Assembly: GCA_027487075.1 (NCBI GenBank)
Contig: JAIYEG010000002.1
Span: 79,202 to 143,201, forward strand
Direction: 5' to 3'
Source of the DNA: a bacterium
Lineage (GTDB): Bacteria > Patescibacteriota > Minisyncoccia > Phycocordibacterales > CALRBL01
Length of the DNA: 64,000 bases
The translations under genes were made by a program, and so were the position numbers. Below, piece after piece: positions 6,638-8,907 of this stretch. Within the stretch, counting starts at the first letter, position 1, and every line of letters begins with the position of its first letter. The notes beneath the pieces are model-generated. The model saw only the letters and a list, made by a program, of their open reading frames with translations, searched no databases and was not told the origin of the DNA.

Positions 6638-7666
6638 ATGGCACTCATTACTTTTAAACCAAAGCAGGTCAGCAAGCGTCTTATTGGATCGCTCCAGTCA
6701 CGTGCCAAGGAAGTTATCATCAATCGGTATGGTCTTGGCGCAGACAGCAAGCGTATGACTCTCGAGGCTATCGGAGACATGTATCACATCACTCGTGAAC
6801 GTGTGCGTCAGATCGAAAATGCCGCCCTTTCTAATATTCGAAAGTCAGAAGAGTTTAAAAAAGAAAAAGAAGTATTTGCTGAACTTGAAGCAGTCCTCAA
6901 GAAGGCCGGAGGCATTGTTGCTGAAGAAGATTTTCTTAATCACCTCACCAAAGACAAGAGTACTCAGAATCACCTCAACTTTTTGCTTGTAATCGGCGAC
7001 TCTTTCCGCAAGGAACGTGAAGACGATGAATTCAAGCACCGATGGTATGTCGATCCTGAACTTTCAAAGAAGGTTCATGAGTCGCTCCGCAAGCTCTACA
7101 GCAGCCTTTCAGATGACACGCTCGTATCTGAATCAGAACTCATCACGCAATTCCTTGAATATCTTAAGGATGTTTCAGATGAATACCGCCAAGAAGAAGT
7201 GATCAAGCGATGGCTCTCAATCTCAAAGAACATTTCGAAGAATCCGCTCGGTGAATGGGGTCTTGCGTCATCATCAAACGTACGTGCAAAAGGTATTCGT
7301 GACTATGCATTCCTCGCAATGCGAAAACATGGTTCTCCTATTCACTTCCGTGATATTGCAAAACTCATTAGCGAACTTTTCAACAAGAAGGCTCACCCAG
7401 CAACCACTCACAACGAGCTCATCAAAGATAATCGTTTTGTGCTTGTAGGACGCGGTCTCTACGCACTTTCTGAATGGGGATATCTCTCAGGTGTGGTAAA
7501 AGATGTGATCAAGAAAATCCTCGAAAAGAATGGTCCTCTTACTCGTGAACAAATCATCGATAAAGTGATGAAAGAGCGCTACGTAAAAGAAAACACTATT
7601 CTCGTCAATCTCCAGAATCCGAAATTCTTCAAGAAATCGAAGGACGGAAAATACTCTGCTGTATAA
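6638..7666 (+). CDS. Sigma-70 region 4-type HTH protein with an N-terminal HTH and no sigma region 2
   Basis: N-terminus ...RMTLEAIGDMYHITRERVRQIENAALSNIRK matches sigma-70 region 4.2. The roughly 260 aa that follow have no motif I recognise. Confidence 0.55.
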   Translation: MALITFKPKQVSKRLIGSLQSRAKEVIINRYGLGADSKRMTLEAIGDMYHITRERVRQIENAALSNIRKSEEFKKEKEVFAELEAVLKKAGGIVAEEDFLNHLTKDKSTQNHLNFLLVIGDSFRKEREDDEFKHRWYVDPELSKKVHESLRKLYSSLSDDTLVSESELITQFLEYLKDVSDEYRQEEVIKRWLSISKNISKNPLGEWGLASSSNVRAKGIRDYAFLAMRKHGSPIHFRDIAKLISELFNKKAHPATTHNELIKDNRFVLVGRGLYALSEWGYLSGVVKDVIKKILEKNGPLTREQIIDKVMKERYVKENTILVNLQNPKFFKKSKDGKYSAV

Positions 7667-7695
7667 CTCTGTAAAGTTTGTGATATAATCTTCGC

Positions 7696-8907
7696 ATGAC
7701 CGAAACGTTAGGTGAAGTATTCGGAGACCTTCTCGTTCAAACGCTCTATGCGTTGTACGTGCTTCTCATTGTGTTTGTACCGATCATCCTCGGCTACATC
7801 TTTTTTAATGTGTGGGTGAAGTATGCACGGGCAAAATTCATATCTGAGCAGTCACACATTCTTCTTGAGTTCAAGCTTCCCAAAGAAATCACTAAATCTC
7901 CCGTTGCAATGGAGATTTTTATCAATGCACTGAGCCAAACTGGGGGCGAAGGAAATTGGTTTGATAGATATGTAAAGGGTGGTATGCGACCGTGGTTCTC
8001 ACTCGAACTCATCTCTCTTGAAGGACAGGTGAAGTTTTTGGTGTGGACACGTAAAGGCTTCAAGAAAAATATTGAGACCCAGCTTTACAGTCAGTATCCC
8101 GATGTTGAGGTGACCGAAGTTCCTGACTATACCGAAAGTATTTCATATGATCCATCAACAAATGAGGTGTGGGGCTGTCAGTTTGTTAAAACAAAAGAAA
8201 GTTTTTATCCAATCAAGACCTACGTTGACTACGGACTCGACAAGGATCCGAAAGAAGAGGTGAAGATAGACCCTATTACTCCCGTGATTGAGCTTCTGGG
8301 CTCACTAGGAACTGGCGAGCAGATGTGGATCCAGATCCTCATTCGTGCACACAAGGATGAATTCGCAAAGCCGGGAACATGGTTTGAAAAAACCGACTGG
8401 AAATATTTTGCGAAGGAGGAAGTAAAGAAAAAATTGAAGCGAGACAAGGGAGAGGGAGAGTCACAGGATCGTCTCACTAAAGGAGAGCAGAAGGCGGTAG
8501 AGGCGATCGAGAAGAGTATTGCAAAGATTCCATTCGATTGTGGTATTCGAGCAGTCTATATTGCTGATAAAGATACATTCAATAAGGCAAATGTCGGAGG
8601 ACTTACCGGATCATTCAAGCAATTTAGTGCACCAGATCTTAATGGCTTCAAGCCAGACAAGACCACATCGTTTGATTTCCCATGGCAAGATATTTTTGGC
8701 ACTAAACTCAAAGAAAAGAAGGAGAAAATCGTAAAATCATACAAAGCACGTGCATTCTTCAAGCCTTTATATCAAGGAAAACATTTCATTATGAATGCCG
8801 AAGAGTTGGTGACAATTTATCATTTCCCAGGACGAGTGTCTCGCACACCGACCTTTACTCGTATTGGATCACGCAAGGGCGATGCTCCATCAAATCTTCC
8901 TATCTAG
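7696..8907 (+). CDS. Membrane-anchored hypothetical protein
   Basis: N-terminal TM segment LLVQTLYALYVLLIVFVPIILGYIFF. No P-loop. It has a start-stop junction with mltG. Confidence 0.5.
   Translation: MTETLGEVFGDLLVQTLYALYVLLIVFVPIILGYIFFNVWVKYARAKFISEQSHILLEFKLPKEITKSPVAMEIFINALSQTGGEGNWFDRYVKGGMRPWFSLELISLEGQVKFLVWTRKGFKKNIETQLYSQYPDVEVTEVPDYTESISYDPSTNEVWGCQFVKTKESFYPIKTYVDYGLDKDPKEEVKIDPITPVIELLGSLGTGEQMWIQILIRAHKDEFAKPGTWFEKTDWKYFAKEEVKKKLKRDKGEGESQDRLTKGEQKAVEAIEKSIAKIPFDCGIRAVYIADKDTFNKANVGGLTGSFKQFSAPDLNGFKPDKTTSFDFPWQDIFGTKLKEKKEKIVKSYKARAFFKPLYQGKHFIMNAEELVTIYHFPGRVSRTPTFTRIGSRKGDAPSNLPI

Follow-up and report, generated by a model that had tools for sequence, protein, structure and literature searches.

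A sigma region 4 and winged-helix protein of Patescibacteria, encoded in a conserved module with a VirB4-type membrane domain and a coupling ATPase

A large part of bacterial diversity belongs to Patescibacteria, the ultra-small CPR bacteria, and for most of their lineage-specific essential genes no function has been assigned. VirD4-type coupling proteins (T4CPs) are present in 2,918 of 3,035 genomes of this group (about 96%), and only 148 out of 5,713 are found near virB4. Relaxases are nearly absent, and an exaptation of the T4CPs was not ruled out by the authors of that survey (PMC12102498). T4CPs recruit secretion substrates, which are usually encoded beside them (PMC12857230). On the F and R388 plasmids, a DNA-binding accessory protein is encoded together with a VirD4-type hexameric membrane ATPase, as in the pairs TraD-TraM and TrwB-TrwA.

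The locus described here lies in the window, the whole 64-kb stretch of DNA that was analysed, and is composed of two genes whose products we call p1 and p2 (Table 1). These are two thirds of a conserved module, in which p1 is followed by p2 (DUF8128) and then by a soluble VirD4/TrwB-like coupling ATPase. No earlier report of this three-gene module was found in the searchable literature. As in the plasmid pairs, a DNA-binding protein is encoded with a VirD4-type ATPase, and by analogy a recognition between the two is possible. Unlike in those pairs, no relaxase, oriT or mating-pair genes were found beside p1 and p2 among the neighbours examined, while p1, judging from its counterpart, is essential and consists of sigma region 4 and winged helices, not RHH.

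Table 1. Features of the two-gene locus, in positions of the window.
Feature	Position	Strand	Description
Gene 1 (p1)	6638..7666	+	ATG, 342 aa; sigma region 4 and four winged-helix domains
Sigma-70 region 4 (4.1 + 4.2), group-1 type	6659..6862	+	aa 8-75 of p1
Winged-helix units 1 and 2 of p1	6863..7273	+	aa 76-138 and 139-212; secondary structure of AlphaFold2 (AF2) model
Winged-helix unit 3 of p1, HARE-HTH	7274..7483	+	aa 213-282; same type of domain as at the N-terminus of RNA polymerase delta
Winged-helix unit 4 of p1	7484..7663	+	aa 283-342; basic, conserved
TGATATAAT, extended -10-like box	7681..7689	+	Ends 6 nt before gene 2 ATG
Gene 2 (p2)	7696..8907	+	ATG, 403 aa; DUF8128 (PF26449)
Single transmembrane segment of p2	7729..7821	+	About aa 12-42; hydropathy; acidic N-terminus before, basic residues after
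Conserved C-terminal segment of p2, EEL(A/V)TIYHFPG...PxNLP(I)	8791..8904	+	Matches linker into ATPase domain of fused homologues

Domains and family of the first protein

The family of p1 is named by NCBI as “sigma factor-like helix-turn-helix DNA-binding protein”. p1, with a region 4 of group-1 type and neither region 2 nor region 3, is no sigma factor. In Pfam, Sigma70_r4 covers aa 16-69 (E 4.2e-12, 45.8 bits, cut-off 24.1). All NCBIfam matches for aa 9-84 are sigma factors, at the C-terminal region 4 of RpoD, SigA or RpoS types, and every match in a PDB sequence search is likewise sigma region 4. The sequence-only reading had assigned a helix-turn-helix, which falls at aa 41-64, to sigma region 4.2, placed at the N-terminus of a 342-aa protein devoid of region 2, and both points were borne out. 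No region 2 or region 3 model matched p1 in Pfam, even at E<=1, nor did LuxR/GerE appear in that list, and the AF2 model likewise shows region 4 and winged helices only.

Compared with group-1 sigma-70 factors (RpoD/SigA), p1 is also missing region 1.2, and its region 4 sits at the N-terminus instead of the C-terminus, ahead of the four winged helices. Having none of regions 1.2, 2 and 3, it is therefore not capable of sigma-style core polymerase binding or of -10 recognition and melting.

The roughly 260 aa after the helix-turn-helix, earlier taken as unknown sequence, are in fact the four winged helices seen in the AF2 model (pLDDT 95.8, pTM 0.84), the third being a HARE-HTH according to Pfam. 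The HARE-HTH (PF05066) covers aa 222-280, with 31.9 bits against a cut-off of 25.9. It is basic and the most conserved region of the whole protein. Units 1 and 2 are the least conserved part (majority-residue fraction 0.37 and 0.34), with a mean family charge of -3.0 and -0.6, that is, acidic to neutral. We infer that these two units serve for protein docking or as a spacer. The last 60 aa, a basic winged helix, carry a charge of +7 and have weak Pfam matches to Trans_reg_C and DUF7669. Overall, region 4, the HARE-HTH and the fourth unit are basic, as opposed to the acidic first two units, with a pI of 9.5 for the protein.

Both recognisable modules of p1 have homologues that bind RNA polymerase. 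It is conceivable, though rather unlikely, that p1 does nothing but associate with RNA polymerase as a general factor, taking the place in CPR of accessory subunits like delta (RpoE) of Firmicutes. Region 4 would then contact the beta-flap tip, -35 DNA or both, and the HARE-HTH would bind RNA polymerase in the manner of delta; p2 and the ATPase would be linked to p1 for membrane tethering or regulation and not for a hand-over of DNA. The extreme conservation of the recognition helix and of the HARE-HTH across the superphylum points to a universal target, in favour of such a role. On the other hand, the HARE-HTH of p1 is internal, the protein is basic and without the long acidic C-terminal tail of delta, and it scores 28.8 bits with the NCBIfam delta model (TIGR04567), under the cut-off of 42, which makes it a related domain and not a member.

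A combination of HARE-HTH with a sigma-type domain has some precedent. Aravind and Iyer (Cell Cycle, 2012) reportedly described HARE-HTH proteins [quoted passage not shown]. By this description, the presence of a HARE-HTH and a sigma-derived helix-turn-helix is common to both at the level of domain architecture; p1 differs in having no alpha-CTD-like domain. To our knowledge, CPR distribution, essentiality and T4CP linkage were not part of their description.

In terms of distribution, p1 has more than 8000 homologues at E<=0.001. The family comprises around 600 clusters (50% identity, E<=1e-30), and its named members all belong to CPR/Patescibacteria, in agreement with the initial suggestion of a CPR-specific family with a sigma region 4 module at its core. 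A set of 43 family sequences, 33-58% identical to the window protein and with the register taken from PDB sequence matches, reveals that the equivalents of E. coli sigma70 R554, R562, T572, L573, R584, E585, R586, R588 and Q589 vary little or not at all. Because these -35-contacting residues are so well kept across the family, region 4 of p1 probably binds double-stranded DNA at -35-like (TTGACA-type) sequences. The basic HARE-HTH and the fourth winged helix would contribute further contacts, with DNA or RNA polymerase.

A scan of genome contigs with the p1 profile returned 80 loci, 14 of them true family members; the list was dominated by ordinary sigma factors, matched through the TRERVRQIE pattern. 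Three Saccharibacteria loci (L023, L055, L059) turned out to be dnaG-rpoD loci, and an apparent 659-aa p1 fusion (P0271) is SecF read through into p1. PADLOC and PHROGs gave p1 region 4 matches only (MzaA, phage sigma), and a reading as a defence system is unsupported.

The membrane protein and the coupling ATPase

Both open reading frames lie at the positions given in the sequence-only reading. A spacer of 29 nt separates gene 2 from gene 1 (the sequence-only reading gave 30), and the product of gene 2 is the N-terminally anchored membrane protein that had been proposed, with one hydrophobic segment. PF26449 is precomputed on a protein identical to p2 and on all close homologues. The AF2 model has one long helix at aa 3-51, and the positive-inside rule predicts an external N-terminus and a cytoplasmic C-terminal domain.

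The fold of this cytoplasmic domain is that of the N-terminal domain of VirB4/TrwK. In sequence, p2 corresponds to the N-terminal domain in fused DUF87/HerA-type ATPases from conjugative plasmids of the Bacillus group (Bacillus/Shouchella), with whose aa 54-311 it aligns (hhalign 98.3%, E 2e-14). The alignment takes in an EEL-A-x-I-x-x-(F/L)-P motif immediately ahead of the ATPase. p2 is thus a single-pass membrane protein, homologous to the N-terminal domain found ahead of the P-loop in conjugative ATPases of VirB4/DUF87 type. It stops at the linker which leads into the ATPase of the fused homologues, and has no ATPase domain of its own (no Walker A/B, and no P-loop family in Pfam or NCBIfam).

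The C-terminal segment of p2 is modelled with low AF2 confidence, yet its sequence is nearly invariant, with E369, H376, P378, G379, P398, L401 and P402 fully conserved. Its motif is retained in all divergent lineages, is duplicated in some, and aligns with EEMAAIMRLP...SLPQ directly before the ATPase of the plasmid protein. We propose that p2 is anchored in the membrane and exposes its domain to the cytoplasm, where the conserved linker would dock an ATPase hexamer.

In contrast to VirB4/TrwK and to TrsD of pGO1-type systems, which resembles a VirB4 N-domain standing alone, p2 carries its own transmembrane anchor and is linked to a VirD4-type ATPase and p1, not to virB4; TrsD homologues in Patescibacteria mostly adjoin virB4 (PMC12102498). 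The fused ATPase on a Shouchella plasmid, presumed to be a coupling protein, adjoins a Replic_Relax relaxase and TcpC. There the N-domain and the ATPase are one chain and a relaxase is present, whereas p2 is a stand-alone, chromosomal N-domain with no relaxase and with p1 as constant neighbour. As for other searches with DUF8128, the profile gave nothing significant against PDB sequences, PHROGs/PADLOC returned one weak match (an 824-aa phage family), and a literature search found no papers.

A sigma-type helix-turn-helix adjoining a single-pass membrane protein whose domain lies in the cytoplasm is also the layout of ECF sigma/anti-sigma pairs, and p2 might hold p1 at the membrane until a signal triggers its release. 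We regard this as highly improbable. No anti-sigma domain (zf-HC2/RskA-type) was found on p2 in Pfam or NCBIfam; its fold and topology differ from those of anti-sigma factors, its homology is with an N-terminal part of ATPases, and its counterpart in Saccharimonadia is apparently fused to one. Moreover, p1 has no region 2 and is therefore unable to direct initiation. The earlier statement that this is neither a conventional sigma factor nor an anti-sigma pair is in accordance with these results.

The two genes are strongly conserved together. Neither of the outcomes that would have refuted the sequence-only reading, a helix-turn-helix of another family such as LuxR/GerE and a pair that does not stay together, was observed. 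Of 14 genome loci, 12 have DUF8128 directly downstream of p1 on the same strand, or 13 when an ORF truncated at the contig end in L014 is counted; one p1 locus (L013) has no DUF8128. In the reverse direction, p1 is found within 500 nt upstream in 58 of 63 DUF8128 loci, with three loci (L141, L152, L159) having no p1 upstream. Neighbours of the pair are leuS, mltG/yceG, mnmA and other housekeeping genes, and secDF, pgk and efp in other lineages. leuS, yceG and mnmA are retained beside the pair in close relatives only, and the p1-p2 adjacency survives in three distinct flank contexts. A purely RNA-polymerase-associated p1 would leave this persistence unexplained. The order secD-secF-p1-p2-ATPase could be, in part, inherited synteny.

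Outside the window's clade, the next gene after p2 encodes the soluble VirD4/TrwB-like coupling ATPase in all ten loci (10/10). In L006, L008-L011 and L039 it is of VirD4/TrwB/TraD type, with Walker A at around aa 40 and without an N-terminal extension. Four out of four independent look-ups (L163-L166) gave the same ATPase after p2, with spacers of 2-12 nt in three and 107 nt in L163. The picture of a two-gene unit thus held for the pair itself, but missed this third gene, as well as the identity of the membrane protein as the docking half of a VirB4/T4CP-type ATPase.

In the window, tblastn with six ATPase sequences found no coupling ATPase within the 64 kb, and none was found in L082-L161. 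The same applies to the -10/+10 kb around the pair in L167, the closest long contig of the window's clade. For this clade, the motor ATPase is assumed to be located elsewhere in the genome. Some candidates were discarded: an apparent match in L002 has only a CxxC zinc finger in common, upstream of p1, L003 and L004 have a 597-aa gene that is BipA/TypA, and Walker A is missing from a 681-aa gene in L167.

Essentiality and candidate roles

Published Tn-seq data for Southlakia epibionticum, the only CPR species so examined (PMC10633639, Tables S1/S2), include SEML1_0294, a 349-aa protein with PF04545 at aa 27-72 and PF05066 at aa 225-283. From its identical architecture and its length we take it as the probable counterpart of p1. 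It is a core, Patescibacteria-enriched gene scored ES/ES/ES, with insertions falling from 24 in the input to 1-2 after selection; it ranks, with RpoD and DnaG, as class I essential and is annotated “RpoS” (PMC10633639). Directly downstream, SEML1_0293 encodes 921 aa with a P-loop region at aa 361-795, and is scored NE/NE/NE; its Tn-seq read counts drop about four-fold in the course of the passages. Its N-terminal 360 aa have no domain assignment in Table S2 (PMC10633639); we infer that they are DUF8128-like. The p2 and ATPase halves thus appear to be fused in this member of Saccharimonadia. The sigma-like protein is mentioned neither in the study of T4SSs in Patescibacteria (PMC12102498) nor in the main text of the Cell Tn-seq paper.

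Our preferred explanation, held tentatively and with slightly less than even confidence, is that p1 is a DNA-binding protein specific to CPR, associated with promoters or RNA polymerase, and in addition a partner of a split, exapted coupling ATPase. p2 and the ATPase would be, in two chains, a rebuilt equivalent of the fused single-chain proteins, and p1 may act as the DNA-side partner of this motor, by analogy with accessory proteins such as TraM with TraD, in a system without relaxase. In S. epibionticum, the p1 counterpart is essential and the ATPase is dispensable; the main job of p1 should therefore be independent of the motor, most likely a general role at promoters or RNA polymerase, and the adaptor role, if real, is secondary. 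The same contrast, with p1 in the class of RpoD and DnaG next to a non-essential ATPase, also favours the delta-like alternative.

A more far-reaching version, which we consider unlikely, is that p1 is a so far unrecognised, essential general transcription component specific to Patescibacteria, a subunit with sigma region 4 and a delta-like part, acting on RNA polymerase or on -35 elements genome-wide, and coupling the transcription machinery or nucleoid to the membrane ATPase docked on p2. If true, this would account for the purpose of the near-universal “orphan” coupling proteins of Patescibacteria.

We give hardly any credence to p1 being itself a type IV secretion substrate, delivered by the ATPase to the host bacterium, where its region 4 would disturb host RNA polymerase or promoters. 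The habit of T4CPs to recruit substrates encoded next to them (PMC12857230), the T4SSs without relaxases of Patescibacteria (PMC12102498) and the universal group-1 type of region 4 would fit. However, p1 is essential and the T4CP is not, p1 is class I while the T4SS genes listed in the same Tn-seq data are GD/ES/ES, that is, class II (PMC10633639), and the housekeeping-like conservation of p1 is unlike that of effectors.

These results give a structural identity to the essential gene annotated “RpoS” in S. epibionticum, whose product combines sigma region 4 with four winged helices, a delta-like one among them. They also tie it to VirD4-type coupling ATPases, which are mostly far from virB4 and without relaxases (PMC12102498). 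The existence of the coupling ATPase in split (DUF8128 plus soluble ATPase) and fused forms provides a structural and evolutionary assignment for DUF8128. Both the role of exapted T4CPs in CPR and that of the essential sigma-like protein are testable in a genetically tractable species. Even if p1 were no more than a conserved DNA binder that keeps its neighbours through inherited synteny, the re-annotation (not RpoS, and not a sigma factor) would be useful.

Lastly, p1 could be an ordinary site-specific regulator of its own neighbourhood, for example of itself or of p2 and the ATPase, which is a narrow form of the transcription factor idea in the sequence-only reading. A protein with several helix-turn-helix domains encoded beside a possible target would suit this role, and p2 seemingly has its own promoter just after p1 in the window's clade. 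It is nevertheless improbable: class I essentiality is unexpected for the regulator of a dispensable gene, five domains of DNA-binding type are excessive for a simple repressor, and the recognition residues, invariant and identical to those of housekeeping sigma factors across distant lineages, are unlike those of typical regulators. The candidate promoter is the extended -10-like box of Table 1, which, going by its sequence and position, could serve gene 2 with a leaderless mRNA. This layout recurs in many relatives, with a -10 box 6-8 nt ahead of the ATG, often after a hairpin and a T-run.

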